DNA of 64,000 bases from a bacterium (lineage in GTDB: Bacteria > Hinthialibacterota > Hinthialibacteria > Hinthialibacterales > Hinthialibacteraceae). The DNA lies in contig CAXXSM010000079.1 in the NCBI GenBank assembly GCA_963663405.2, positions 21,956 to 85,955 of the forward strand. The letters run 5' to 3'. The notes under the pieces are model-generated. The model saw nothing but the letters and a program-made list of their open reading frames with translations. It did no database searches and was not told the origin of the DNA. This document shows positions 5,338 to 61,658 of this stretch, piece after piece (position 1 is the first letter of the stretch; the number at the start of each line of letters is the position of its first letter). The position numbers and the translations under genes are program-made.

Positions 5338-6646
5338 CTATATCTCTTCTGGAACGGTGAAGGGCGTACGATAGTCACCACACAAAATCATGTTCGCTTG
5401 ATCGTCATCGATGCAGCGTTCCGTTTTCGGATCGAACCGCAAGGTCCGCTCGGTCAGATAGGCCGCGTTCGCCAAATGACAAAGCGCAGAAGACAGGTGG
5501 CCTTCTTCGACAGGCGCGTTCAGGTCTTCTACTTTGCGGCTGCGCACGCAATCGATGAAATTGGCCCAGTGATCGCCGCTTTCATCTCCACTAGGTCCTG
5601 GTTTCCGTTCACGGCCCAAGTAGACTTGGTACTTGCTGTAACTGGGAATCACCATATACCCTTTGGAGCCCAGGAATAAGTTCCCGACAACGTTGCCCCG
5701 GCTTCCCTCACCCAATTCGTCCTGTGTGATCCAATGGCGAACCTCAAAGACCATCATTTTGTTCTCTTCCGGGTATTTATACGTCGCGACCATAGTATTC
5801 GGCGTTTCCTGGTCGTCGTCAAACATGAAGTGACCGCCAAGACAGTTGATCTGACTAGGCAGGCCGACATTCAATCCCCACCGGGCGACGTCAAATTGAT
5901 GCACGCCTTGATTGCCGATATCGCCATTGCCGTAATCCCAATGCCAGTGCCAGTTATAGTGGAAGCGGTTCTCGGCTGTATGGGCGCTGATCCGCCGGGC
6001 CAAGCCATTCATTATAATGCACACCCTCCGGCGGTTCGCTCTCCGGTGTGTGGCCGATTGTGTTCCGCCATTTATAACACGTGCCTTTCGCGTAATAGAC
6101 TTCCCCGATTAATCCATCGTGGAGCATCTTCATCGCTTCTTGGATCGACGGATTGCTGCGGATTTGCGTGCCGTGTTGGACGATGCGGTTGTACTTCTTC
6201 GCCGCTTCCACGAGTTTGCGTCCTTCATAAATATTATGGGAGAGGGGTTTTTCAACATAAACATCTTTCCCCGCTTGACAGGCCCAGATCGCCATCAGTG
6301 AATGCCAGTGGTTGGGGGTGGCGATGGTCACTGCATCGATATCCTCATTTTGAAGTAAGTCTTTGATATCCGTGTATTTCTTGGGATCGTTCGGAAACCG
6401 TGGATCGTTCTTTAACCGTTCCGCCCGGTCGTTCAAGATTTCTTCATCGACATCGCACAAGGCGGCGATTTTTACATTGGGAAGTCTCTTGAATCCATCA
6501 ATATGACTCCGGCCCCGGCCATTCAGTCCCACGCACGCGACATTGATGGTGTCGTTTGCGCTCGCTCCCGCGTTAGTCAACACCGTCAAACCAACCGCCG
6601 CGCCGGTGGCGCTTTTGAGAAAATTCCTGCGTGTTTCGTTTTTCAT
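5338..6646 (-). CDS. Tat-exported Gfo/Idh/MocA oxidoreductase (frameshift near 5975)
   Basis: TRRNFLK Tat motif, VGLNGRG, ATPNHWH, DVYVEKP, WDYGNGDIGNQGVHQFD; split over ORFs 5954-6676 and 5338-6024. Confidence 0.85.
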
Positions 6647-6812
6647 AATACACTCCATTCCATTCATGAATCCCATTCTCTGTCCGAAAGGGTTTTGTGA
6701 TTGATTGTATCCCGTATAGTAAAGGTATATATGTATAGGTCAAGCGGATGGATTTTATTGTTCCCAATATTACTATCTAAGGGGAAAATTATTTCATCCG
6801 GAGTCATTATAC

Positions 6813-20627: not shown

Positions 20628-21530
20628 TCAATCCTGTCTCGAACGGCCCTGGGCGACGATCAAATCCGCCAATAATCCCATACACCCGATCAAAACCCCC
20701 GCGAGAACGAGAATAATATCGCCCTCCTGCAACGTGCCTTGTTCCGAAACAAAATCCATGATCCCCCGGACGCAGCCGATCAGAAACAACATCAATCCAA
20801 CCGGCATAAAAACACGTAGCGGATTGAAATACATCACCATACGTATAACGGTAGAAAGGTATTTTCCCGTATCTTTGATAGGATGAAATTTCGATTTCCC
20901 GATCCGCTTGTGATATTTTGATGGGATCCACTTCACTGCGTAACCGTTGCAGAGAAAAGCCAGTGTCATTGTCGTAACGCATGAAAAACCATCCGGGATC
21001 ACCCAAAGATATTTCATCATCACACTGCGTTTAAACGCTTTCAAGCCCGTATTCAAATCAGGAATTCGTTGTCCGGATAAATAAATCGCCAACCGGCGAA
21101 TCAACCATTTCGCAGGCACGCGAAGTAATTTCATCGTCCCTTCCTCGGACAACCTCTCACCGTTCACTTGGTCCCATTCGGGTAACAATTCCAACATTTT
21201 CGGGATATCGGCGGCGGTGTACGTTCCATCAGCGTCCAGCATGACGATCAGTTCACCTCTCGCTTCCCGGATTCCCGTTTTCCGGGCGGCGCCGGAACCG
21301 CCGTTGATTTGGCGTTTAACGATTCGTACGTTTTTTTCCTGCGCGATGGATACGGTCGCGTCTTGGGAACAGTCATCCACCACGAGGATTTCGTAGGCGT
21401 AGTCCGTCGAATTCATCGCGGTCCGCACTTCATCGATCACAGGCCCAATCGCGTCTTCCTCATTGAATGTGGGAAGAACAACGCTGACTTCGACTGGATT
21501 TTGGTCATTCGAATGTTCAGGCATAATCAT
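20628..21530 (-). CDS. GT2 polyprenol-phosphate glycosyltransferase (DPM/ArnC-like)
   Basis: VVLPTFNEE, VDDCSQD, MLDADGTY, DLNTGLKAF, RIGKSK; two C-terminal TM helices. Confidence 0.9.
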   Translation of the reverse strand: MIMPEHSNDQNPVEVSVVLPTFNEEDAIGPVIDEVRTAMNSTDYAYEILVVDDCSQDATVSIAQEKNVRIVKRQINGGSGAARKTGIREARGELIVMLDADGTYTAADIPKMLELLPEWDQVNGERLSEEGTMKLLRVPAKWLIRRLAIYLSGQRIPDLNTGLKAFKRSVMMKYLWVIPDGFSCVTTMTLAFLCNGYAVKWIPSKYHKRIGKSKFHPIKDTGKYLSTVIRMVMYFNPLRVFMPVGLMLFLIGCVRGIMDFVSEQGTLQEGDIILVLAGVLIGCMGLLADLIVAQGRSRQD

Positions 21531-21869
21531 TTATCTCCAATTAGCATTGTGCGGCGCGCAGAAAGAAGTTCAAGATCAGGAAGAGCAGGTTTTTCAGTTT
21601 TTTATTCTATCCACTTCAACGGCAAAACACATGCAAGATGAAACGCAGTGTAATCTTATATGTAACGCCTCGATCAATTCCAATCATTTTGCGGACATTG
21701 TTTTTCCACCAGTTTTTCTCCATTTCGTTGTACTTGTATATAAAAATACTCTGGATAGCGTTATACTAGAATCTTCAAAGGATACAGTCGAATTCATCTT
21801 TTATATGCGCTTTACTTATAGTTTGTAGAGAGTTTTTTTTCGAGTGAACACGCTAGAAAGGAATCCAAA

Positions 21870-23078
21870 ATGGAAAAAAAAGAAACCCGCCGTGAATTTG
21901 TCAAAAATACCGCCACCGCTGGATTGGGCATCGCGGCAATGAGTCAAATCGCGCCTTCTTCGGTTTTAGGCGCAAACGACCGCCTGCGTATTGGAGGCAT
22001 TGGAACGGGTGACCGTGGCACAGACCGCCTGCGCACCGCCAAGCGGCTCGGTTGTGAGATTGTCGCTCTATCGGACGTCAATGAAGCGATGTTGGACCGC
22101 TGTGATGAACGGTTGGATCAAAAAACAAAACGGTACGTTGATTATGGCGATTTATTGGCCCGTGATGACATTGATGGAGTCGTTGTCGCCGCGCCCGATC
22201 ATTGGCACCACAATATGTTCCTTGACACCCTTAAGGCGAAAAAAGACGTTTACATCGAAAAACCTCTCTCCCGCACGATTGAAGAAGGCCAAAACATGGT
22301 CAAAATCGCCAACGCTTCCAATCAAATCGTCCAAGTGGGCAACCACCGCCGCAGCGGGAAACATTGGGCGATCGCTCATGAAATCGTCGCATCCGGCGCC
22401 ATCGGCGCGATCCGCTACGTGCGCGCCTGGGATTGCCGGTACCGGTTGATCGACCCCTACCAGAGACGCGCGGAAGACAAGAATCTCTATAATCCGGAAC
22501 GAATCGACTGGCAACGCTTTTTAGGAAACGCCCCATCCCGCCCATTCGACGCGGAACGATGTTCGGCTTGGCGCTGGTTTTGGGATTACGCGGGAGGGTT
22601 AATGACGGATATCGGCCCTCACATGCTCGACGTCGCGATGTGGATCACCGAATGCCCCGGCCCCAAGCGAGTGGTCTGCAATGGTGGCAATTACCACTAT
22701 CCCCGCTGGGAAACGCCCGACAACGTTCACGCCATCCTGGACTGCTCCACTTACTCCATTGTCTTTGACGTGCAGTTCATGAATGGTTTCGAAGGCGACG
22801 GCGCCGCTTTCTACGGTGAAAAAGGAAGCGTCATTCAAGAGCGCGACGGGATGTTCCGGCAGTATGACACCGACAACAAAGTCGTGAAAGAATGGAAATA
22901 CGGTGATGAGGGAACCGCTCATATGCAGAACTTCATGGACTGCATCCGGTCGCGGAAAACCGCCAATTCCCCAGCGGATATCGCCCACCGGGTTATCGCT
23001 GGCGCGCATTTAGCTAATATCTCCTATCAGACCGGCAAACGAATCGGCTGGGATCCTCACAAAGAGAAGATTATTTAA
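21870..23078 (+). CDS. Tat-exported Gfo/Idh/MocA oxidoreductase
   Basis: TRREFVK, IGTGDRG, APDHWH, YIEKP, WDYAGGLMTDIGPH. Confidence 0.9.
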   Translation: MEKKETRREFVKNTATAGLGIAAMSQIAPSSVLGANDRLRIGGIGTGDRGTDRLRTAKRLGCEIVALSDVNEAMLDRCDERLDQKTKRYVDYGDLLARDDIDGVVVAAPDHWHHNMFLDTLKAKKDVYIEKPLSRTIEEGQNMVKIANASNQIVQVGNHRRSGKHWAIAHEIVASGAIGAIRYVRAWDCRYRLIDPYQRRAEDKNLYNPERIDWQRFLGNAPSRPFDAERCSAWRWFWDYAGGLMTDIGPHMLDVAMWITECPGPKRVVCNGGNYHYPRWETPDNVHAILDCSTYSIVFDVQFMNGFEGDGAAFYGEKGSVIQERDGMFRQYDTDNKVVKEWKYGDEGTAHMQNFMDCIRSRKTANSPADIAHRVIAGAHLANISYQTGKRIGWDPHKEKII

Positions 23079-31563: not shown

Positions 31564-33148
31564 CTACATTTCATCGCAGTCCTGATCGGTTGCGAATTGT
31601 GTTTCTTGCGAAGTATCGGAATCTCCTAACAGGATTTTTTTCCGTTCAGCGGCTTCATGCCGCAAGCGGTTTTCCTGTTCATCGGAACGTCTTTTCATCA
31701 AGGCTCTAACGTAGAGGTTAATTCCCAAACAAATAAGAATTCCAATTGATCCAAACAGACAAATCACTTTGGCGCAAATACCAGTAACAATGGCGGGCGA
31801 TAAAAGCGGAAATAAACCAACAAAATACAACCCAAATTGTTCGGCCCATTTTCAAATGGGCGTCACCGCGAACGAAAATTCTATCCGCCCACCCAGTTGC
31901 GATAACGGCGGCGAATGCGACATACGTCGTTGACACAGGTAAACCCATCCCTGAAGCGAACGCAATCACACTTCCTGAGACAGAGGTAATAACAGCCGCC
32001 CGTAACGCGTCGTAATGTTGTAATTTATGCTTTTCCGTAAAATGAGGTTCGGGAGCCAAAGCCTCATCGGGTTTCCGTTCCTTGATGAATTGTTTGGCAA
32101 GAGTTACACACCATTTGGGCGCGTATAACCTCACGACATCCCCTTGACTGCCCGTATTCACCTCAGCGCGCGTAACACGCTGAGCGGTTCGTGTGGCCAT
32201 ACCCAACGCCAAGAGGACTCCGCACAAAAGAAGCAGATAGATCGAGACCGGCACTTCAGCCAACATTTTGACGTCTTCCCCTAAATGTTGAAGAATCATC
32301 AAGGAGGAGACACCGGGAGAAGCGCAATTGGCGAGATCGTTTTGACCAAATGCGATGGCTGTCGCCAACATACCTAAAACCGCCATTCCTGCAAACAGAT
32401 TTTTCTGTATGATCTCCCCCCCCAATCGAAGCGCCATCCAAGAAAGAAAAGCCAATACTGCGAACACAATAGTAAGCACAGCAGGGGCTCCAAGCGCTTC
32501 AAATGTGGTTTTTTGTATAGAGGCGACGAAATCTACATGGCTCATCCCTTTGATAAGCATGAAATAGACCAGACCGGTCATAAGAAAGGCCGCGATCCAA
32601 GGCCCATGAAGACGGACTCGTTCCGTATCTTCACATTCTTGACCGATCGCCCCACGAAACGCGCGCTGGATAAAAAAGCCGATTATCCCGCTAAAAATAA
32701 TCGATAGGATAATACCAAGAATCACTCGCCCGCTTGAAATCCACTGGATTGTGTCATAACCGCCGACAGCATAGCCTCCCCCAAGCAACGCGAAAACAAG
32801 AGTGGCCGTCGTCGAGACGGGCATACCATACGAGGAAAAAGAAAAAAGAAGCACAGTATTGGTAATATAAACAGCTAAATAGATTGCGAGAGCATCTGTA
32901 AGAGAAATCGTAGTGGGATCAAAGATTCCTTTCCGGGCGGTTTCCATAACCTGTGAGGATGCGACGGCGCCGAGAATTACAGCGAGTCCCGCAATCCGGA
33001 CAGCCCATTTCCGCTTCATTACCCGGGCTCCAAAAACTGCGTTCACAATATTCGCCGCATCGTTCCGACCCACTTCAATCGTGTTCCAGACAAGCATAAC
33101 ACCGGCTATACAACCTGCGAGATAAAAAAAGATATAGGATTCATTCAT
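31564..33148 (-). CDS. Inorganic phosphate transporter (PiT family), frameshift near 31795
   Basis: GRNDAAN, GMPVSTT, FGQNDLAN, GLPVSTTYV; the C-terminus continues in ORF 31564-31830. Confidence 0.8.
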
Positions 33149-33608
33149 AGCAGGATTCAGCTCCTATTTTCCCTTTGCCTTGTTTTCACGTACCCAAAAT
33201 TACGTAATTGCGGATGAACTTCTTTCAATTGCAGGATGGAAAATTGATTGTGGTTTTTAGAAAAATAGATGAGAGAGACCCATGGCGAGTCAATCAGTGG
33301 ATAACGATTTTGAAATCCTATATAAGGATTATTATTCATGTTCGATCGTTCTGCTCGTCATACCAAAGTGAGTTCGACCGGTTTTAGGGATTCCGAGATA
33401 GTTGTAGTCCTGTTTTGTTTTTTCATTAAACATGGCGCATTGCTGCAAAGCCTTCTATCCAGTGCTGACCCCGGACGTTAAATGAAACTCAAGCCAATTT
33501 TATATACAATAAGTTTCTCAACAACTAGATCAATATTTCCTTTTTTTTCTGGCTTTTAAACGTTTCATTTTATAACGAAAAAACATTAATTTTATTTATT
33601 TTTCAATG

Positions 33609-33677
33609 TTAACATACAATTTACAGACTCGATCGAAAACCTCAAGCCGTTCAGCATGGATTAACAATTCTCTAACA
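33609..33677. promoter_or_regulatory. Two Pho-box-like 11-bp-period direct repeats
   Basis: TTAACA-N5-TTTACA (33609-33625) and TTAACA-N5-CTAACA (33661-33677), upstream of the phosphate transporter. Confidence 0.45.
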
Positions 33678-33691
33678 ATACATAAAATAAC

Positions 33692-33866
33692 ATAGAAAAG
33701 ACCGGCCCAAGCTCCGCCTGGTTACCGGTCTTAAAGTTACCGAAGGTTGGTCAGTTAGCTCCGCCAACATAAACCTTCGTCAATTCCGAAGGCTGTTTCG
33801 GTCACCTCGGCAGTTCACTCGAAATATCCTGTCGAAGTTCCTGTCAACCTTCTCTACAGCACCCAG
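33692..33866 (-). ncRNA. Candidate sigma54-dependent sRNA with GGA-apex hairpins (CsrB/RsmZ-like)
   Basis: GC-rich structured island in an AT-rich intergenic region; GACAGGA x2; GTTGGC-GGA-GCTAAC; CCAGGC-GGA-GCTTGG inside a terminal AGACCGG/CCGGTCT stem followed by Us. Confidence 0.55.
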
Positions 33867-33876
33867 GCTATTTATT

Positions 33877-33892
33877 TACAAATCGTGTGCCA
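33877..33892 (-). promoter_or_regulatory. Sigma54 (-24/-12) promoter
   Basis: TGGCACACGATTTGTA, i.e. GG-N10-GT against consensus TGGCACR-N4-TTGCW; AT-rich upstream region. Confidence 0.6.
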
Positions 33893-34104
33893 ATTCAGTT
33901 TTGAAATAGAAATCCAGGGTTAATTGACAACAAAAAGCATATAAAACACTGATTTAAAAGAGTTTAAAAAATAACAACATAAAAAGCGGCCAGATTGAAC
34001 TTACGAAAAAGAGAACGAATAGAAAAGTGATAAGTAGGAATTTTTTACCTAATGGACAAACCATACCGGAATGAATCGTCTACAGAGACCTACGCGATTT
34101 CTTA

Positions 34105-34803
34105 TTACTCGGTATCCGATCCAGCGGCGACAACAACACCTTCCTGGATTTCATATTCGTCATACGCGTATCCCGGTTTTAAAACACGAGTGATACAACC
34201 GGGTTTCACGGTATCCGAAGATTCCTGTCCAGAACAATGAACATACTCCGGATCAACTTTATCACCGACAACCGCCGTCCGGCGCAGCGGCATTTTATCA
34301 ACCGCGGCGGAAAACAGATCGGCGGACTGACTCATCGGCTTATGGATGAAGATAAAACTGTTCTTTAAAACGCCTAAATCCCCTTCTTCGACCTTTTTGT
34401 CCATGAAAAGCATCGTCTCAAGGAAAAGATCGAACCGTGTCAATAGATCCGCCATCCGGTCTTCCCTGATCGAAACGGTGTCAGCGCCTCTGTAAGAATA
34501 AACCTGGTAGGAGAGCGTCTCCTGTCCATACGGGAATTCCTGCAAGCGGCCCAACCGGCCGGGATGTTCTCCCGATTCTTCCATAACAATCTCCTGCGCC
34601 GAAGAGAGAAACCGTATCAGATGATTATGACATTTCTCAATTGCTGTGCCGATATCTCCTGAGACTGTCGCCGTGTACCGCTCAAACGGTTCCAAGGCGC
34701 GGGAAAAGGCGGGATCCATCCCCCGTGGAAGGGGAGCGACCAGATCAGTCATGGTTCGCCAACTCTCAGCGGGCACATATAAATCTCTAAGGCTTTGGGA
34801 CAT
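34105..34803 (-). CDS. Hypothetical protein with GrpE-like C-terminal beta domain
   Basis: VGDKVDPEYVHC...PGCITRVLKPGY...VVVA. Confidence 0.55.
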   Translation of the reverse strand: MSQSLRDLYVPAESWRTMTDLVAPLPRGMDPAFSRALEPFERYTATVSGDIGTAIEKCHNHLIRFLSSAQEIVMEESGEHPGRLGRLQEFPYGQETLSYQVYSYRGADTVSIREDRMADLLTRFDLFLETMLFMDKKVEEGDLGVLKNSFIFIHKPMSQSADLFSAAVDKMPLRRTAVVGDKVDPEYVHCSGQESSDTVKPGCITRVLKPGYAYDEYEIQEGVVVAAGSDTE

Positions 34804-36187
34804 CTTGAATATTCTCCTCTTTTATTTCAGAAAATCCGGGGCCGCGGGTTTCTTCCTCAGCGGCGCCCCGGTTCGAAAAAGTCTGATAGATCCACTTGCC
34901 AGAATCGGTCAGAGACGCGATGCCGATCCAACTATAAAGGATTAAAAATGGTTCTATCGGCATTCGAAACCGGGTGCGGGCGAAATAGATTAAACAAATA
35001 AAAGTATAGAGAATGATAATAGAGATCAAATGCCCATGACGGAACCGATGAAGGAACGCGTAAACGAATCCCGCAAAGGCCATCAACAAAAGAAACGGAT
35101 TCCACCGGAAAACAGGCCATCGAATCCCGCTGGGGAAATTCAATCCCCTCGTCTGGTTGGTGATGTATTCCTCCCAGGGCCAAGGTTCTATGTCCATTAG
35201 ATACAGAAAATAGAGTTTCATGATTGAATGGCGTATGAGAAGCGATGGATGCTGTATAATATTCTCTACCCCCAGCTGGAAGAAATACCGGTCTTCCAGC
35301 GCCTCATCGGCGCCAAATTGTTCTTTGAATTCCCGGCGGATTTCTTCTTTCTCTCCCGTGTAGAAATAATCATAGTTTGGATGATGTCCGATATAGAAAT
35401 TGACGCCCGAATTGGTCGTGATAAAAACAAAATGGCCCAGTTGAATTGTATTCCGCACACTCCAAGGAATAATGGGGAGCAGCCAGAGAAACAAAGGAAT
35501 CCAGATCGCTGCGCGCCAGCGTTCTTTTGGAATGACCCATAATGTCTTAAAGACGAGAATGGGAAGAAAAACCAACGCCATTGGCCGGATTAAAACCAAA
35601 AGCCCAAGCAGAAGCGAAGCAAGATATAAATAGATGGTTTTTCCGGATGGCGCGCATCGCATCAGGAGCCACGCCCATACAAGAAGGAGAAAAATAAATA
35701 GGGTTTCCGTCATCAGAATCGCGCTGAAGAAGATTTGATCCGCGAACCAGGCAAAAGTTAATCCCGCGCCAAAGGGAATCCAGATCGAGCGGGACCACCA
35801 TGTAAGCGGTGTGTTTTTACGGGCGTTTCTGAGCAGTCTATGCGCGATGAGATACAATAAAACCGCGGAAGCCGAGCTGAGAATCGATTGAATCACACGG
35901 ATTGAAAACAGATAGTTATCGGGAAAGCACTTCATACACGTGGCGATGAAAAGAGGATACAACGGCGCCCGATACGCGAGCCGGCCCGGTTCCATGGCTA
36001 AGAGCGTATGTCTTAGATAATTGAATGCGCATAGATAATAATCTTCCATATCCGAAAAGGGCGGTGGATGTTGAACCCACGCCCATAGCAACCGTGGAAT
36101 CAGGGCGAGGCCAAAAAGCAAGACGCCCAATCCCCACAAAAGGACCACGGGGCGGTCAATCTCCGTTGATAGCGAAAAACGTTTCAT
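34787..36187 (-). CDS. ArnT/PMT (GT-C) family membrane glycosyltransferase
   Basis: SDMEDY, YRAPLYP, MTETL, LIRP, PWSVRN, NFYIG, RFRMPIEP. Confidence 0.85.
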   Translation of the reverse strand: MKRFSLSTEIDRPVVLLWGLGVLLFGLALIPRLLWAWVQHPPPFSDMEDYYLCAFNYLRHTLLAMEPGRLAYRAPLYPLFIATCMKCFPDNYLFSIRVIQSILSSASAVLLYLIAHRLLRNARKNTPLTWWSRSIWIPFGAGLTFAWFADQIFFSAILMTETLFIFLLLVWAWLLMRCAPSGKTIYLYLASLLLGLLVLIRPMALVFLPILVFKTLWVIPKERWRAAIWIPLFLWLLPIIPWSVRNTIQLGHFVFITTNSGVNFYIGHHPNYDYFYTGEKEEIRREFKEQFGADEALEDRYFFQLGVENIIQHPSLLIRHSIMKLYFLYLMDIEPWPWEEYITNQTRGLNFPSGIRWPVFRWNPFLLLMAFAGFVYAFLHRFRHGHLISIIILYTFICLIYFARTRFRMPIEPFLILYSWIGIASLTDSGKWIYQTFSNRGAAEEETRGPGFSEIKEENIQDVPKP

Positions 36188-39643: not shown

Positions 39644-40117
39644 TCATGATAGATTGACGATGAGTTGCACTTCCCCACGGGGCAGGCGAAGTTCTTCAGC
39701 GATTTTTTCAAGCGGCCAGCCTTGGCGGTGGAGTTCGATAATGCGGTCTTTTTCTTTATGCTTGGAAAAACCCTGTTTAGGGGCGAGAGGGACGATACGA
39801 GCTGGAGGCTTTCCAGACTCAACCGGAGGAGGATCAATTTCCATCAGTTTCATTTCCATGCGTTCGCACATCGTTTGAATCGCCTGGGTTTGCACGCGCA
39901 TTCGCTTCAGTTGAGATTCGGTGTAAATCTCAACGTTTTCGACTAAATCCTGCATAAACGTTTGTAAATGATGTAGATCTTTGACGGAAAGAGTCCCCGG
40001 TTTGGGGGGGCTGTGCTCGAATTCCCGCTCGACTTTAGTCAACCGGGTTTTCAACTGGAGCAACCAAGACACCAGTCCTATGTTGAGGAGAATCAACAAG
40101 AATTCAATAATCGACAT
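39644..40117 (-). CDS. DUF2802/DUF6115-like flagellar-locus membrane protein with C-terminal HTH
   Basis: N-terminal TM, coiled coil, QGWPLEKIAEELRLPRGEVQLI. Confidence 0.7.
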   Translation of the reverse strand: MSIIEFLLILLNIGLVSWLLQLKTRLTKVEREFEHSPPKPGTLSVKDLHHLQTFMQDLVENVEIYTESQLKRMRVQTQAIQTMCERMEMKLMEIDPPPVESGKPPARIVPLAPKQGFSKHKEKDRIIELHRQGWPLEKIAEELRLPRGEVQLIVNLS

Positions 40118-40255
40118 CACTGCCCTCAACCGAAAAAATCGGAATGAAATCTATAGAAAATAAAGATAAAATTGGTTCATCCGGTAAGTAAATACGTAAA
40201 GTAAAAAATATTCTCTTTCCATGGAAGTTTGTGTATCCATGTTCACCTATCAGTA

Positions 40256-40302
40256 TGTCCCTCCGGGACAAAAGAAAATAGCCCAGGGTTTTAACCCTGG
40301 GG
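40256..40302. repeat. Double palindrome (REP-like)
   Basis: TGTCCC-TCC-GGGACA and CCCAGGGTT-TT-AACCCTGGG. Confidence 0.5.
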
Positions 40303-42048: not shown

Positions 42049-42861
42049 TTAAATCACCATATCACTCTGCCAGGTGGCGAGTTTGCCGCGGAGACGCAGC
42101 ATGGCTTTGGTGTGGAGTTGGCAGATTCTTGATTCAGTGACACCGAGTACTTCGCCGATTTCACGCAGTGTCAATTCTTCATTGTAATACATGACGACGA
42201 CGAGACGTTCTTTATCGGGGAGGCCCTCGATGGCTTGGGTGAGGAGTTCGACGATTTCTTCCTGCTGGATCTGATCGCGGGGATCGTCCGTGTTCCGCGA
42301 GGGGGTGACATCGGCGCGGGTGGTTGTGCCGTCGTCGGAGATGCGCAGCACCTCATCCAAAGAAAGCAGCGCCGCCCGGCTGGCGTGATTCAACAGTCCC
42401 TGCAGATCTTCGGGCTCAATCCCCAGTTTTGCGGCGAGTTCCAACTCATTCGCGGGACGGAGGAGTTGGCTCTCCAGCTCGTTGAAGGCGTTTTGAAGTT
42501 TATTCACCTGCTGCCGGAGGGAGCGGGGGATCCAATCCACCGACCGCAGTTCATCGATAATCGATCCTTTGATGCGGGGAATGGCGTACGTGATAAATTT
42601 CACGTCGCGGCCGGGATCGAAGTTATCGATCGCGGAAAGCAATCCCATTACCCCGCAGGAATAGAGATCATCGTAATCCAACACCTCACTCTCGATATGA
42701 GATACCGCCAGCATCCGGTTGATGACGTATTTAATTAAGTGGATATATTTTTCGGCGAGTTTTTCGCGGACTTCAAGCGAGCCGGACTGAGTGAACTCGG
42801 CCCACAGCTGCTTTTCCTCCTCCTCGGAAATTTTTTCTCTAATGGCGTTGTAATAGCGCAT
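42049..42861 (-). CDS. fliA: RNA polymerase sigma factor FliA/WhiG (sigma28)
   Basis: DDLYSCGVMGL, FITYAIPRIKGSIIDELRSVDWIPRS, LTLREIGEVLGVTESRICQLH. Confidence 0.95.
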   Translation of the reverse strand: MRYYNAIREKISEEEEKQLWAEFTQSGSLEVREKLAEKYIHLIKYVINRMLAVSHIESEVLDYDDLYSCGVMGLLSAIDNFDPGRDVKFITYAIPRIKGSIIDELRSVDWIPRSLRQQVNKLQNAFNELESQLLRPANELELAAKLGIEPEDLQGLLNHASRAALLSLDEVLRISDDGTTTRADVTPSRNTDDPRDQIQQEEIVELLTQAIEGLPDKERLVVVMYYNEELTLREIGEVLGVTESRICQLHTKAMLRLRGKLATWQSDMVI

Positions 42862-46116: not shown

Positions 46117-48646
46117 CTACAAGAATGGCGCGAGATTGCCATTGCCGTCCAATTGATATGTTTCATCCCGAGTCAGCCCAGTGATCTCAATGGAACATCC
46201 AATCGCGTCCTGCAATCTCGCAACGAGACTGTCCGCCTTCGTATATTTCCCACCTGAGACAGCGCAGGTATATTGTATCTTACACCCATTTTTGATTCCA
46301 GCAACATATGATCGATAAAGATTGAAATCCTTACGCCATTCCGGATGATTTAACAATCTTTGGATCGTTTCCAGCGGCGGCCCGGCGCCCGGAATTGAAC
46401 AATGGATCGTAAATTGAAACGCGTTGAGAGCGGCTGTTATTTTCTTCGCCTGCGCGCCGAGTTCACAAACGGCTACAATCCGCAATCCTTCGGGACACAA
46501 TCGATTCAGACGCTGGATCAAGGATTCAGGATCGCAGCGTTCTGTTGTGTACAAATCCAAATACTCTCCCAGACTCTCGACACCGACCGGCAGCGCGGAA
46601 GCGAATACGATCTTTGGATGGGGATGAAATCCTTGCGAGAAAGCAATGGGGATTTCCGCCCGGCGGAAGAGCGCTTCAAACATCGACATGAGATCGAGGT
46701 GCGAAAGATAGATCAAACGGCCTGTTTTGCTGAACTTCAACCGGCAGCGGAACGGTGATGTTTGGGATTGGGCGCCTTCTGAAGAACGCCGGCTGGTGTC
46801 AGGACTCCGCGCTGTTTCCGGCTCTACGCTGGGCGCATGGATTGTCATCGTGTTCTCACCATCACAGACACCGCAAAGAGTACAGAATTCGTTCCCACAA
46901 TGGCGGTTTCCGGAGGCGGAAAGCGTTTTTTCCCATTCGCTCCAGAGATAGTGATCCGAAATCCGGGCCGAGATGGGTCTCCAAGGCAAAAGATCGTCCT
47001 GTTCGTATTGTTTCGAGGCGTATTCTTCCAGAGAAAGGCCATGACTGGCAAACGCGTCGACCCATCGCTCGAAAGAGAAGCGCTCCTTCCATTCATCGAA
47101 ACGCCCTCCATTTTCATACACGGTCCGTATAACGGATCCAACCCGGACATCACCGCGCGCGAGCGCTGACTCCACTACACTTTTCCGGGGATCATGCCAA
47201 TTTACTTTGATCCATTTATCGGACAAACCCGACCGGATCACATTCACGCGCCGTTCCATTTCTTCCAAAGAAATCTGGCCGTACCACTGAAAAGCAGTGT
47301 GGGGTTTGGGAACGAAAGGAGAAATCCCAACGTGGATTTTCGTCCGTTTCTTCCCTTCCCGGCGCAACATATCCTTGATTTTATGGATTAGGTCAACAAT
47401 TCCATGAATATCTTGATCCGTCTCGGTGGGTAAACCCAACATAAAATACAGTTTGATGACTGTCTGCTTTTTTTGGACGGTTTCTCGAGCCAGATCGAGA
47501 ATTTCATCGTCATGAATGAGTTTATTGATCGCCCAGCGCAGGCGCTCGGTCCCCGCTTCGGGCGCAAATGTGAGACCGGTTCCACGGACTTTACCTATCT
47601 CTTCAATTACATGAGAGGGAAAATTATCTACCCGTAGTGACGGCAGTGATAGAGCGACGCGCTGAGAATAGAAACCTTGGATCAATCCATAGCAGAGATC
47701 CGGTAACCGGGAATAATCCCCTGTCGAGAGCGAAAGAAGGCTGAGTTCATCCAATCCCGTTTCGCGCAAGCTCATTTTCGCGTCGCGCAGAAGCCGTTCG
47801 TATGAACGTTCCCTTACGGGCCGGTTGGTATACCCCGCCTGGCAGAAACGGCAGCCGCCGGAACAGCCACGCATCACCTCGAGCGCCACGCGGTGATGAA
47901 TCACCTGCGTGTTGGGAACGATTGGTTTTTCGGGATAATAGGACCGCTCGAAATCCATGATCAAACGCTTTTCAACGCGTTCGGGGATTCCGTTATGTTT
48001 TGGGGTGTAGAAGAATCGTTTCCCCCAACCGGTTTGTGACTGTCTCATATAATGAAGGAACGAAAACACCGGGGATTTTCCCCAACTCGCATAGAATCTC
48101 ACTTCGTTGCGCGCGAGCGTCCCGCAATCTCTTCACACAGCCACATATCTCCAGAATCACCTCTTCCCCTTCACCGACCGCAAACGCATCCATGAAATCC
48201 ACGAGCGGCATGGGATTATACGCGCAGGGCCCCCCGGCGATCACGATTGGATCATCATCACGGCGCTGTTCGGCGATAATAGAAATCCCTCCAAGATCGA
48301 GAACCGTTAGAATGTTCGTATAGAGCATTTCATGCTGTAAAGCAAATCCAACGATGTTCATTTCATGGAGCGGCGTACCGCTCTCCAGTACGCATAAGCG
48401 CTTTTTCTCTTGACGCAGCTGCGCTTCCCGGTCCGGCCATGGCGCGAACGCCCGTTCGCACCAGATCGTTTCCTCCTTATTTAAGAGTCCGTAAAGAAGC
48501 TGCAAACCGAGGAAGGACATCCCTACTTCATATACATCCGGATAGACAAATGCAAAACGCAGTTTGCCCTGTGGATCCTTATGAACAGCGTTCCATTCCG
48601 ATCCAATATACCGAACAGGTTTTTCCACGGAGACTAAATTCTTCAT
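46117..48646 (-). CDS. Radical SAM protein (TIGR03960-like) fused to a TIGR03936-like domain; frameshift near 48010
   Basis: EKPVRYIGSE, PDVYEVGMS, WCERAF, RGCSGGCRFC, TFAPEAG, FVPKPHT, YLSHLD, GFHPHPK. Confidence 0.85.
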
Positions 48647-48701
48647 TAATAAATTCTTTATTGATTTGATGTGAGAATGAATTTCGATAATATACAAGCA
48701 T

Positions 48702-48804
48702 GTAGGGTGAGTCGCGTCTAAAGGAGGCGCCAATTTCGTAAATCATTCCCAGACTGTAGGGTGGGTCGCGCCTTTATGACCCACCGTTTTCGTGAATCAT
48801 TCCC
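48702..48804 (+). repeat. Two tandem GTAG-REP family 2 units (54-bp period)
   Basis: GTAGGGTGAGTCGCGTCTAAAGGAGGCGCC and GTAGGGTGGGTCGCGCCTTTATGACCCACC, each followed by a TTTCG..AATCATTCCC tail. Confidence 0.8.
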
Positions 48805-57871: not shown

Positions 57872-58170
57872 TTACACTCTCTTTTCCCACTGACGTGGGA
57901 TTCCGGCTGCCATGCATTACAGCCAACACAACAATGGATTGCTCAATCGTTTGGTAATAAACGCCAAAAGGGAATTTGTGAATTAACGCTCGCCGTACTT
58001 CCTTATGAACAAAAGGGTATAAAAAAGGGGTTTCATCGATGGTTTTCAGAGTGTGGAGGATTTCATCCAAAAATCGCTCACCAAGGCCTTTGCGTTGACT
58101 TTCATACCAGACAGCGGCGTCTTCGATATCCTTTTCCGCCTCCGTCCGTATTTATTTTATTTCTATTACA
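57872..58170 (-). CDS. RelE/ParE family toxin (frameshifted ends)
   Basis: EAEKDIEDAAVWYESQRKGLGERFLDEI...RRALIHKFPFGVYY...LAVMHGSRNP. Confidence 0.75.
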
Positions 58171-58375
58171 ATCGTTTTCTAATTTCGTCTATGACAACTT
58201 CAGCCGGTCGGCCTTGGGCTCCATCCAATTTAAGAGATTCCAACCGCCGATCCAATTCTTTTCTTTGTTCGCCAGTTAATACCAACGCCTGCTGATCCTC
58301 CGCAATACTATCCCAAAGGTCTTCCACAATCTGAAGGCGTTGCTCGATCGTAAGGTCTCTCAGCGATTGATTCAT
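58166..58375 (-). CDS. Addiction-module antitoxin (TIGR02574-like)
   Basis: LTIEQRLQIVEDLWDSI...QRKELDRRL; directly upstream of the ParE-like toxin. Confidence 0.85.
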   Translation of the reverse strand: MNQSLRDLTIEQRLQIVEDLWDSIAEDQQALVLTGEQRKELDRRLESLKLDGAQGRPAEVVIDEIRKRL

Positions 58376-58573: not shown

Positions 58574-59164
58574 TCACAACTCAAACCGCGAATTCAGCGC
58601 TAAAGCCAATGTCGTTTCATCCGCGTATTCAAGGTCGCTTCCGGAGGGGAGACCGCGGGCGATGCGGGTGACTTTCACGCCTAAAGGTTTGATCGCGGTT
58701 TGGAGGTAGGCGGCGGTCGCGTCGCCTTCCATGGTGGGATTAGTAGCGAGGATCACTTCTTGGATGGAGGGGGTGAGGCGTTGGAGAAGTTTGGGCGCGC
58801 CGATTTCATCCGGTCCGATGCCGTCGATGGGAGAAAGAGCGGCGCCGAGAATATGATAGAGTCCCTTGAATTGGCCGGTGCGTTCGATCGCCTGCACGTC
58901 CTGCGGTTGTTCGACCACACAGAGGACACTCGTATCCCGCCCCGGCCCCGCGCAAATCGGACAAGGGTCCGACTGAGCGTAGCCGCCGCAGGTTGAACAT
59001 TTCCGCACATCCTTAACCAGCGATTGGAGAGCGCCGATCAATTCTTCGATCTCGCTTCTGCCACGCTTCAGCATGGCGTAGGTCAGCCGCTGCGCCATGC
59101 GCGGACCGATCCCCGGCATCTTCGCCAATTGCTTGGCGGCTGTTTCCACGGCGGGAATCACCAT
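58574..59164 (-). CDS. recR: Recombination mediator RecR
   Basis: PGIGPRMAQRL, CSTC..CPIC, VVE, SPIDGIGP, EVILATNPTMEG, DLEYAD. Confidence 0.95.
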   Translation of the reverse strand: MVIPAVETAAKQLAKMPGIGPRMAQRLTYAMLKRGRSEIEELIGALQSLVKDVRKCSTCGGYAQSDPCPICAGPGRDTSVLCVVEQPQDVQAIERTGQFKGLYHILGAALSPIDGIGPDEIGAPKLLQRLTPSIQEVILATNPTMEGDATAAYLQTAIKPLGVKVTRIARGLPSGSDLEYADETTLALALNSRFEL

Positions 59165-59196
59165 GCTCTGTGATTTCACCGCGCCAAACCGGTCGT

Positions 59197-59530
59197 TCAT
59201 AACGATAATCCAGGAATCGAAATCCCACCGGTAATTTCGCTCATGCGTTCCTTTCACCATCTCCTGCGTTCGTTCCTGCGCTTCGTTACGGCGACGAGAA
59301 CTAAATCTTCCAGCATGGAGACGTTTTCCGGATCAACGATATCCGGCTCTATTTTAATAGGAAGTAACGATCTGTTTTCCATTCATGGTTACCGTCACCA
59401 TGCCTCCACCGGCGGTGGCGGTCACCTCTTGCTGCGCGAGTTCTTCCCGCATATCGGCCAGTTTCTGCTGCATCTCTTTCGCCTGCTTGACCATTCCTGC
59501 GAGATTCGCCAAATTTCCGAGACCTTTCAT
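59197..59530 (-). CDS. ybaB: Nucleoid-associated protein YbaB/EbfC (frameshifted)
   Basis: [39 protein letters not shown]; directly upstream of recR. Confidence 0.8.
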
Positions 59531-59572: not shown

Positions 59573-61658
59573 TCAATACGCGCCTTTTCCAAAGAGGACA
59601 ACGGGAATTGTTTTCAATAATATAAGTATATCAAATAAAGCGATTGGTTTTGGATGTAATAGAAATCGTATTCCAGATTGGAATGAAGCGGCAGGTCTTT
59701 GCGGCCGCTGATCTGCCATAAGCCCGTAATGCCTGGAATCACGGAGAGACGGCGTCGCTGCCAGGGTTCGTATGAATCGACAATAAATGACATCTCCGGG
59801 CGAGGGCCGACCATGCTCATTTCTCCTTTAAGCACATTGTAGAGCTGTGGCAGTTCATCCAGGCTGGTGCGCCGCAGCAGTGACCGATCGGTAGGATGCG
59901 TGGATCCCCTTTCTTAATGGGCGCTTCTTCATATTCGTTCACTTCCCTGTACATGGTCCGGAATTTATACATCGTGAACGGCTCTCCGTTGATTCCCGAT
60001 GCGTTGATGCCGGAAAATCGCGGGACCAGGAGAATTCAACCGGATTGCGAGACAGATTATAGGAAAGAACGGCAAGCTGACAGCCAACATCGCGCTGGCG
60101 ATCAGAACATCCATGATCCGCTTGCTTGTGCGTTCAAAGGGGGACAATCCTCCCTGCCGCAGCACTTTAAAAGGAATATCATCTACATCATCGAAATAAC
60201 GCGTCATCAGCGACGACGCCCATCATATCCGTCAGGATGTTGTATTGACGGATTGTGCTCTTCTCTCCACAGGAGACGACTAAGTTGAGCATCTCGCGCC
60301 GTTCCATCTTCGAATCGACGAAAAACACTTCATCCGCCGCCAGCGTATTCGCCCAATCCGGAAGCTGCTCGACTGGACCGAGAACAGGACGCCCGAAGAC
60401 TGTCTCACCTGTTTGATGCGTATCATCAAGCAGACCGAGGATATCGTATTTGCCTTCCGGATGCCGGTGCAGCCGCTCGACGATCTTTCTCGCATGATCC
60501 CCGGCGCCGACGACCAACGCGCGAACCCGTCCGATTCCCTCCTGAAACATCGCTTTTTCCATCCATGACCAGATCAAGCGGGAAGCGGTCAATAAGATAA
60601 CGCCAGTACAGACCGCAACACAAGCACCGCCCGTCCTAGATCAATCCTTTCATCAGAAACGCGACCGCCATCGAAGTAATCATGAACAGAAACGCCATTT
60701 TCACAATCGCGTTCAATCGTCCAAGGCAGTCCGCAAGTATTGACGGCGGTAGAGTCCAGGGACGCGCAAATGATGATCCATATAACAATAATGAAAGGAA
60801 GCGCGATGACGTAATTTTCGAGCGGATTTAGATCTTTCCGGATAAACTCAGGCAAAAAGGAGAGTTTGGGAAAAAACTTCCGATCGTAAAAAGTAGGATA
60901 GAAACCATGCGGCGCACGCCAATAAGGCGTCTGTAAAGACAAGAAAACCACCCGGAACGTAAAAACGATGTTTCCTAAAAGATACCGCTTCCATAAACGG
61001 CGGGGTTCTAAGCAGAGCCGCCACAACCATTCCAAACCGGATTGACGCATCCATAGCGGCGCACGCTCGATTCCTTTCGCGGAATAATCAAGCAAGCCGC
61101 CAACCCCCCAAACGACCGGAACGCCGAGTTCGTCCAGATGCCGCCGGATCCATAGTTCCTGTTTCGGCGCCCCCATGCCGACGATTAATATATCCGGTTT
61201 CGCCGCACGGATTTTTTCGAGAACCGCTGGATTCTCCTCCTCTTGGAAAAAACCAGGTGACAACCGGTGATCTGCAATTGAGGGAACCGGGAGCGGAAAT
61301 CTTCGGCGGCTTTTTCCGCGATACCGCCTTCCCCGCCTAAAAGAAATATCCGGTGTCCCTGCTTCTCCGCCCTCCGCTGAATTCCGGCAATAGATCGTTG
61401 GCGTTCAATCGTTCCGGCAGGGGATGGCCAAACAGGCGCGAAGCCCCAAACCACCCCCCATTCCATCCGCATAGACGAGATGAGAGCCGGTGATCGCTTC
61501 CCCGGTAGTCGGGATCCGACCAGCATTTATTTAAACAATCCGCGTTGAGATAAGAGATTTGGTGGACCGCGCCGATTGAACGAATTCATCAATACGATTC
61601 AAAAATTCTTCGCTCGTTAGGGAATCGATATCAAGCCAAACAACCGGCTTCGTACCAT
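59573..61658 (-). CDS. WecB/TagA/CpsF (WecG-like) glycosyltransferase fused to a WcaJ-like undecaprenyl-phosphate sugar phosphotransferase; heavily frameshifted
   Basis: Fragments [38 protein letters not shown]; TM block; LVVGAG; KRIMDV; [35 protein letters not shown]. Confidence 0.75.

Follow-up and report, generated by a model that had tools for sequence, protein, structure and literature searches.

The question raised by this locus is what a short GC-rich segment encodes that lies within a 950-nt intergenic gap of the window, by which we mean the whole stretch of 64,000 nucleotides that was analysed. An earlier note on the same DNA had proposed a sigma-54-transcribed small RNA which presents GGA motifs on hairpin tips and acts like a CsrA/RsmA sponge. 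As judged from sequence comparison, the segment probably encodes a small regulatory RNA that is transcribed on its own, acts in trans and belongs to a new family conserved in an uncultured lineage. The gene and its neighbours are as follows.

33694 to 33864, minus strand: the sRNA gene, about 170 nt, with a predicted 5' end; covariance model score on the window 168.1 bits
34105 to 34803, minus strand: GrpE-like ORF of 232 aa, upstream of the RNA and on the same strand
34787 to 36187, minus strand: TMEM260-like glycosyltransferase ORF, upstream of the RNA and on the same strand
31718 to 33148, minus strand: PHO4/PiT phosphate transporter, downstream of the RNA
Plus strand: PilT-like ATPase, downstream and on the strand opposite to the RNA

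On the minus strand, TGGCACACGATTTGT at 33892-33878 (TGGCACACGATTTGTA when read to 33877) is followed by a GC-rich RNA of about 170 nt (33864-33694), which ends in a hairpin and a U-tract. The GC content is 0.495 at 33700-33899, and 0.25 and 0.32 in the two flanks. The long helix CGAAGGTT/AACCTTCG, topped by GTTGGC-GGA-GCTAAC, is present as previously described, and so is the terminal hairpin with its U-run, in which the helix GACCGG/CCGGTC carries the tip CCAGGC-GGA-GCTTGG and is followed by CTTTTCT. The sequence GGCGGAGC is found in two places of the 64-kb window, and both lie within the RNA. The minus strand folds to -64.8 kcal/mol, clearly better than its shuffled versions (z -4.00, with none of 200 shuffles equally good); the plus-strand fold reached -50.9 with a z of -3.69. 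A simple scan of the minus strand flagged neither a sigma-70-type promoter nor a terminator at the RNA, and we take the 3' hairpin to have been passed over because its stem is interrupted by internal loops. The claim that these GC-rich 170 nt or so hold no credible ORF is borne out by the homologs described below, in which the longest stop-free stretch ranges from 28 to 58 aa and loop lengths differ by non-multiples of three. Comparison of the nine sequences introduced below supports the prediction of a non-coding, independently terminated small RNA.

Relatives of the locus were found through the neighbouring GrpE-like protein, which gave 31 database matches including the window's own, the other 30 at 43-65% identity. 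Some of these matches are named Candidatus Omnitrophota bacterium, and three related MAGs are labelled Candidatus Omnitrophota. Fourteen species-level MAG loci (L001-L014) were retrieved via the alignment of this protein, which is only 53-65% identical at these loci. Homologs of the RNA in related MAGs, for which the earlier note had suggested a search, were detected by blastn at eight of these fourteen syntenic loci with 70.6-78.9% identity over 175-209 nt, always 190-330 nt downstream of the GrpE-like gene and on the same strand. The window and these eight RNA-bearing loci make up the nine-sequence set used throughout. A covariance model built from the nine sequences scored 127-179 bits on the eight loci, with one copy per locus. 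The RNA has a mean pairwise identity of 0.79, compared with 0.58 in both flanks, which could not be aligned. A covariance search of the six remaining loci with filters off gave nothing above 11 bits (E 0.19); five of the fourteen loci are without the RNA beside the GrpE-like gene, and at the sixth, L005, the contig ends early. A dispersed repeat or mobile element was considered and rejected, since there is one copy per locus in the 263,837 bases of window and loci and blastn against plasmid and phage collections found no match to the RNA.

The secondary structure was derived in two ways. RNAalifold was run on an unfitted MAFFT alignment of the nine sequences, and separate counts were made on an alignment fitted to the covariance model. 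The unfitted alignment gave 40 pairs in six helices, of which 5 pairs were compensatory, and the model-fitted set consists of the same pairs. Together they show a three-domain fold of the predicted RNA, in which P1 encloses P2, P3 encloses the P4 hairpin, and the terminator helix P5 encloses the P6 hairpin. The parts of the RNA are listed here.

33853 to 33864, minus strand: 5' tail GGGUGCUGUAGA, single-stranded in the consensus, first 7 nt invariant; a candidate base-pairing seed
33788 to 33852, minus strand: domain 1, composed of P1, J1/2, P2 and L2
33852-33845 with 33795-33788, minus strand: outer helix P1, 2 compensatory pairs, 98.6% paired
33844-33838, minus strand: variable loop J1/2 (ACAGGAA), with GGA in 6 of 9 sequences
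33837-33829 with 33813-33805, minus strand: inner helix P2, 1 compensatory pair, 100% paired
33828-33814, minus strand: loop L2 with the invariant UUCGAGUGAA; GGA at the edge of P2 and L2 in seven sequences out of nine
33742 to 33778, minus strand: domain 2, P3 enclosing P4
33778-33771 with 33749-33742, minus strand: outer helix P3, same sequence as P1, 1 compensatory pair
33768-33754, minus strand: hairpin P4, tip GGA at 33762-33760 within an invariant GCGGAGC, 1 compensatory pair
33694 to 33729, minus strand: domain 3, the intrinsic terminator, composed of P5, P6 and the U-tract
33729-33725 with 33705-33701, minus strand: helix P5, 1 compensatory pair, 100% paired
33720-33708, minus strand: hairpin P6, tip GGA at 33715-33713 within an invariant GCGGAGC, 2 compensatory pairs, 100% paired
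33700-33694, minus strand: U-tract following P5

In the model-fitted alignment, which favours the structure by construction, 98.9% of the cells were paired, compared with 96.1% in shuffles. Eight pairs changed on both sides, compared with 1.1 +/- 1.0 in shuffles (none of 500 reached this number) and at most three in slid controls, and on the same alignment every one of the six helices holds at least one compensatory pair. Single-sequence folds recovered at least 36 of the 38-40 consensus pairs in seven of the nine sequences, with 32/40 in L001 and 18/40 in L010, and their z values ranged from -2.5 to -7.1. The P5/P6 hairpin is followed by a run of at least four T in all nine, which marks it as an intrinsic terminator. 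The unpaired parts that do not vary are the 5' GGGUGCU, UUCGAGUGAA in L2, and the GCGGAGC tips of P4 and P6. The invariance of GCGGAGC at both tips (9/9) agrees with the observation in the earlier note that the two apical stems differ in sequence and share their tip, and the two stems also covary. Other details of that description fared less well. The proposed CCGAGG/CTTCGG hairpin is not a conserved pairing, because CCGAGG forms the 3' strand of P2 and CCTTC belongs to the 3' strand of P1; GACAGGAAC and GACAGGATAT, said to lie in short stems, are both present in the RNA on the minus strand, but the first GACAGGAAC falls in a variable loop and is not conserved as such.

The helices P1 and P3 have the same 8-bp sequence in most homologs, so their strands could swap partners. 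A strand-swapped fold, in which the 5' strand of P1 pairs with the 3' strand of P3, is nearly as good as the nested one because of this shared sequence: it is 95.8% and 97.2% paired and shows no compensatory change, while the nested fold is 98.6% and 98.6% paired and shows three compensatory changes. The nested fold is tentatively preferred on the strength of L014, the only lineage that separates the two. Both a switch and the trace of a duplication are candidate readings of the shared sequence of P1 and P3. As a switch, the exchange of strands may hide or show the binding hairpins.

The control of the gene can be read from two upstream elements.

33878 to 33892, minus strand: sigma-54-type promoter TGGCAC-ACGAT-TTGT, with the -24 GG and with GT replacing GC at -12
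34037 to 34049: palindrome GGTAAAAAATTCC, a candidate UAS to which an enhancer-binding activator would bind; its centre is 151 nt upstream of TGGCAC

The sigma-54 promoter consensus is TGGCAC-N5-TTGC, with GG at -24 and GC at -12 in exact spacing. The -24/-12 motif named in the earlier note on the minus strand is present, and its TGGCAC and TTGT are invariant in all nine sequences, with exact spacing and a 5-nt spacer that is different in each. The conservation of the nine-sequence alignment starts exactly at TGGCAC and nothing aligns further upstream. The conserved block GGGTGCT begins 13-14 nt past TTGT, and a sigma-54 start site is expected at about this distance from the -12 element. Each RNA-bearing locus (8/8) has the exact TGGCAC-N5-TTGT once, in a constant position, and the other six loci do not have it. 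The window alone holds three one-mismatch matches to TGGCAC-N5-TTGC, with 3.33 expected, which is chance level; the significance of the match comes from its conservation among the loci and not from the single window.

The same elements could be read otherwise, as an operator, as part of the promoter of another sigma factor, or as a stretch near the start of a longer transcript, and we regard such a non-sigma-54 origin as quite unlikely. It is favoured by the -12 element, which is TTGT instead of the usual TTGC in all nine sequences, by the chance-level match of the window on its own, and by the lack of a visible rpoN or activator gene: a scan of window ORFs, which covered 63 of the 99 with 110 aa or more (those nested in longer ORFs were left out) and 44 of the 49 small intergenic ones, found no RpoN or sigma-54 activator, and a six-frame search of the 263,837 bases of window and loci for GAFTGA, Walker A and RpoN-box motifs, which is a weak test, also found none. 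Against it stand the perfect -24 hexamer and the -12 tetramer, both unchanged in nine of nine sequences at an exact 5-nt distance across a freely varying spacer, the fixed distance from TTGT to the conserved start of the RNA, an upstream region without any other conserved promoter-like element, the palindrome at enhancer distance, and a second, perfect TGGCAC-N5-TTGC upstream of an ORF start in L010. This last site, TTGGCACGAGTATTGCAT at about 440 on the minus strand of L010, lies some 100-130 nt ahead of ATG starts close to the end of the locus, which truncates the gene behind it, and is a second candidate sigma-54 promoter in the lineage. The reading of the RNA as a putatively sigma-54-transcribed sRNA is well supported by these comparisons.

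The palindrome was picked by an unbiased 14-mer scan of the nine upstream regions, taken as the sequence between the GrpE-like gene and the promoter, with 16 total mismatches compared with 28-33 in 30 shuffles. Its family consensus is AGGAAATTTTTTCC (14 nt), from which the nine sequences deviate by 0-3 mismatches. In seven of the nine sequences the centre of the palindrome is 145-154 nt upstream of TGGCAC; the exceptions are L007, with 195 nt, and L014, with 127 nt. The distance of the palindrome to the end of the upstream gene varies from about 26 to 181 nt. Since the distance is fixed to TGGCAC and variable to the upstream gene, the palindrome is part of the promoter and not of that gene. 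It sits where activator sites lie, roughly 100-200 bp upstream, and would be enhancer-like in position. At 2327-2492 of L005, the contig ends about 30 nt past TGGCACACACCTTGA, and a palindrome GGCAAATTTTTCC is present 129 nt upstream; the bases after TGGCACACACCTTGA do not match the RNA family. This site may be a cut-off and diverged tenth copy of the unit of promoter and RNA.

The position of the RNA before a transporter gene raised the possibility of a cis-acting leader, that is, an attenuator or riboswitch of the downstream PHO4/PiT gene. PHO4 comes after the RNA in the same orientation, both in the window and at five of the eight RNA-bearing loci, often 150-230 nt away, it is found at that place in none of the six loci without a detected RNA, and the terminator at the end of the RNA would suit an expression platform. 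We nevertheless consider a leader very improbable. A leader is always upstream of the gene that it regulates and in the same orientation, but the next gene after the RNA is convergent in L014 and L006, and in L001 the RNA is separated from PHO4 by an ORF on the opposite strand, the minus strand of that locus; the window has 546 nt between the RNA and PHO4. Inspected by eye, the stretch from the RNA to PHO4 is not obviously conserved, and no conserved alternative to the terminator hairpin was found. The locus L012 ends before the context of its next gene can be read. Because the next gene is convergent in two loci, the RNA is read as a stand-alone transcript, which has its own predicted promoter and terminator and does not need PHO4.

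Several other features of the window were recorded. The sole Rfam match in the window at gathering score is an Acido-Lenti-1 sRNA at 40256-40301 on the minus strand (38.6 bits, cut-off 37). It precedes a DUF2802/DUF6115 ORF (39644-40129) at a short distance, and a FliA-like sigma factor gene (42049-42861) is close by; the MAG relatives found here are labelled Omnitrophota. Three genes are seemingly split into overlapping ORFs, a GFO_IDH_MocA oxidoreductase (5338-6676), a radical SAM/DUF2344 gene (46117-48733) and a WecG glycosyltransferase (60589-61526), and these look like frameshifts, through assembly error or as pseudogenes. A small ORF at 58166-58375 on the minus strand, beside recR (58574-59260), matches the antitoxin family Unstab_antitox (E 5.5e-13).

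The sponge function proposed in the earlier note, in the sense of CsrB/RsmZ, is not supported. The RNA carries 4-7 GGA per 168-179 nt, while the means of dinucleotide shuffles are 4.5-6.3 (P 0.21-0.86 in all nine sequences), only the two GGAs at the tips of P4 and P6 are invariant, and no Rfam family matches. A many-site CsrA sponge was therefore rejected, since GGA is not enriched over composition and only two GGAs are invariant.

In the model of the earlier note the RNA titrates CsrA/RsmA, whose dimers would sit on the loop-exposed GGAs, so that sigma-54-driven bursts of the RNA would free CsrA-repressed mRNAs; we judge this model unlikely. In its favour, two short hairpins (6 and 5 bp), and these two sites only, leave a GGA unpaired at the apex in nine of nine sequences and on covarying stems, and the constant spacing of 44-47 nt between the two tips would suit one dimer on both. 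An ACAGGA(U) is also present at the P2/L2 edge in seven of the nine sequences and a GGA in the J1/2 loop in six, and the lineage has flagellar and pilus genes (FliA-like sigma factor, DUF2802, PilT), those for the sigma factor and DUF2802 lying 6-8 kb from the RNA. Against titration, GGA is no more frequent than in shuffled sequence, the whole heptamer GCGGAGC is fixed and not GGA alone, the invariant 5' tail and L2 loop are left unexplained, and neither a Csr/Rsm nor any other Rfam family matched at E up to 10. An A usually precedes GGA in the CsrA consensus, and GCGGAGC does not have it; CsrA sites are also usually drawn with looser loops than a GGA triloop closed by C-G. Among the window ORFs scanned, the same 63 and 44 as for RpoN, there was no CsrA, FliW or Hfq, nor was csrA or fliW found in the loci, and a six-frame search for CsrA motifs in the 263,837 bases of window and loci, again a weak test, gave none. 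From the literature, hairpins with GGA at the tip match the stated CsrA target, of which one CsrA dimer takes up two (PMC7366521), and McaS is an example of the known small CsrA binders with two sites (PMC13501541). On the other side, RNA antagonists are reported not to have been found to date in species where FliW antagonises CsrA (PMC7366521).

A two-site CsrA decoy is accordingly a doubtful candidate. Its most specific form, a CsrA antagonist under sigma-54 and activator control in which a two-hairpin clamp would hold one CsrA dimer on the invariant GCGGAGC tips, in a flagellated lineage outside the Proteobacteria, would be similarly improbable. If this clamp were true, CsrA would be opposed by an RNA in a group for which the protein FliW is the sole expected antagonist, and should the tips bind CsrA, its control by RNA would reach beyond Gammaproteobacteria. 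The earlier note also offered an sRNA with a duplicated element as an alternative, which accounts for the data no less well than a CsrA sponge does.

For the stand-alone regulatory RNA that we prefer, the following course of events is suggested. An enhancer-binding activator on the palindrome would switch on the sigma-54 RNA polymerase, transcription would start about 12 nt past TTGT, at GGGUGCU, and stop at the U-tract, and the RNA would then act on other molecules via its invariant exposed parts. As for the effector, we tentatively favour base pairing with mRNAs, for which the RNA would use the GGGUGCU of its single-stranded 5' tail and UUCGAGUGAA in loop L2, while the twin hairpins would give a hold to a dimeric RNA-binding protein that may be CsrA, a combination to which we give somewhat less than an even chance. 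Such an RNA would be a dual-function riboregulator or a two-site decoy, and not a many-site sponge. When the whole RNA was compared by RNAduplex with the starts of ORFs that reach 150 aa or more, the duplexes were long and unrealistic and no partner was consistent, and the 8-mer complements to the four conserved segments in the 264 kb, a search of low power, were mostly the opposite strand of the gene itself, plus scattered matches. One intergenic site at 21839-21849 on the minus strand, between the ORFs 20628-21530 (minus) and 21870-23078 (plus), has the sequence GTTCACTCGAA, which is perfectly complementary over 11 nt to the invariant loop L2, and this could be chance.

A full control unit can be read here from the sequence, with an enhancer-like site, a sigma-54-type promoter, a structured RNA whose exposed elements are invariant, and a terminator. 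It opens a direct way into one sigma-54 regulon of organisms without culture, and the covariance model of this candidate for a new RNA family is ready for wider searches.

The RNA has not been catalogued before. Rfam at gathering score placed no family at the RNA in the window and gave no match in the eight related loci. At E up to 10, the region 33300-34200 gave three chance-level matches to a fly lncRNA and a plant microRNA family (12.6-15.6 bits, cut-offs 60-75). In the literature searched on Omnitrophota/Omnitrophica and on sigma-54-dependent sRNAs and CsrA sponges, neither such an RNA nor any other regulatory RNA of the lineage was found.

Among the RNAs which bind CsrA, CsrB/CsrC and RsmX/Y/Z likewise expose GGA at the apices of short hairpins and have a terminator behind them, but they have many GGA sites and are typically driven by GacA/UvrY-type regulators (PMC7366521), whereas the present RNA has two invariant GGAs without enrichment, a sigma-54-type promoter, and no Rfam match. 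McaS-type RNAs are small RNAs with few GGA sites. Partial CsrA sequestration is implicated for them besides base pairing (PMC13501541); they belong to another group of organisms and show no homology, and our RNA is a possible CsrA binder. CrcZ of Pseudomonas depends on CbrB and sigma-54, and differs from our RNA in being longer, with A-rich CA motifs instead of the GGA hairpins, and in giving no Rfam match here. It is like the candidate decoy in that it is a protein-decoy sRNA, for Hfq (PMC13501541).

In Enterobacteriaceae, glmY is transcribed by the sigma-54 polymerase and GlrR binds palindromic sites more than 100 bp upstream (PMC4152352). The layout of our locus mirrors that of glmY because of its palindrome more than 100 bp upstream of a sigma-54-type promoter. 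GlmY/GlmZ are also of similar size, and GlmY is a decoy of the protein RapZ (PMC4152352; PMC13501541), comparable to the candidate decoy role here. Unlike in our case, glrK-glrR adjoin glmY; no activator gene is beside our RNA and no link to RapZ is known, the palindrome and the phylum are different, and Rfam shows no match in sequence or structure. The Qrr sRNAs of Vibrio require sigma-54 and the phosphorylated activator LuxO, and are multi-hairpin, base-pairing sRNAs with a terminator (PMC13501541); by contrast, the present RNA has one copy per locus, its conserved segments are unrelated, and there is no Rfam match. Its placement as a predicted new family within the known class of sigma-54-dependent sRNAs, as that class is described for Qrr and GlmY in the two sources cited (PMC13501541; PMC4152352), is well supported.
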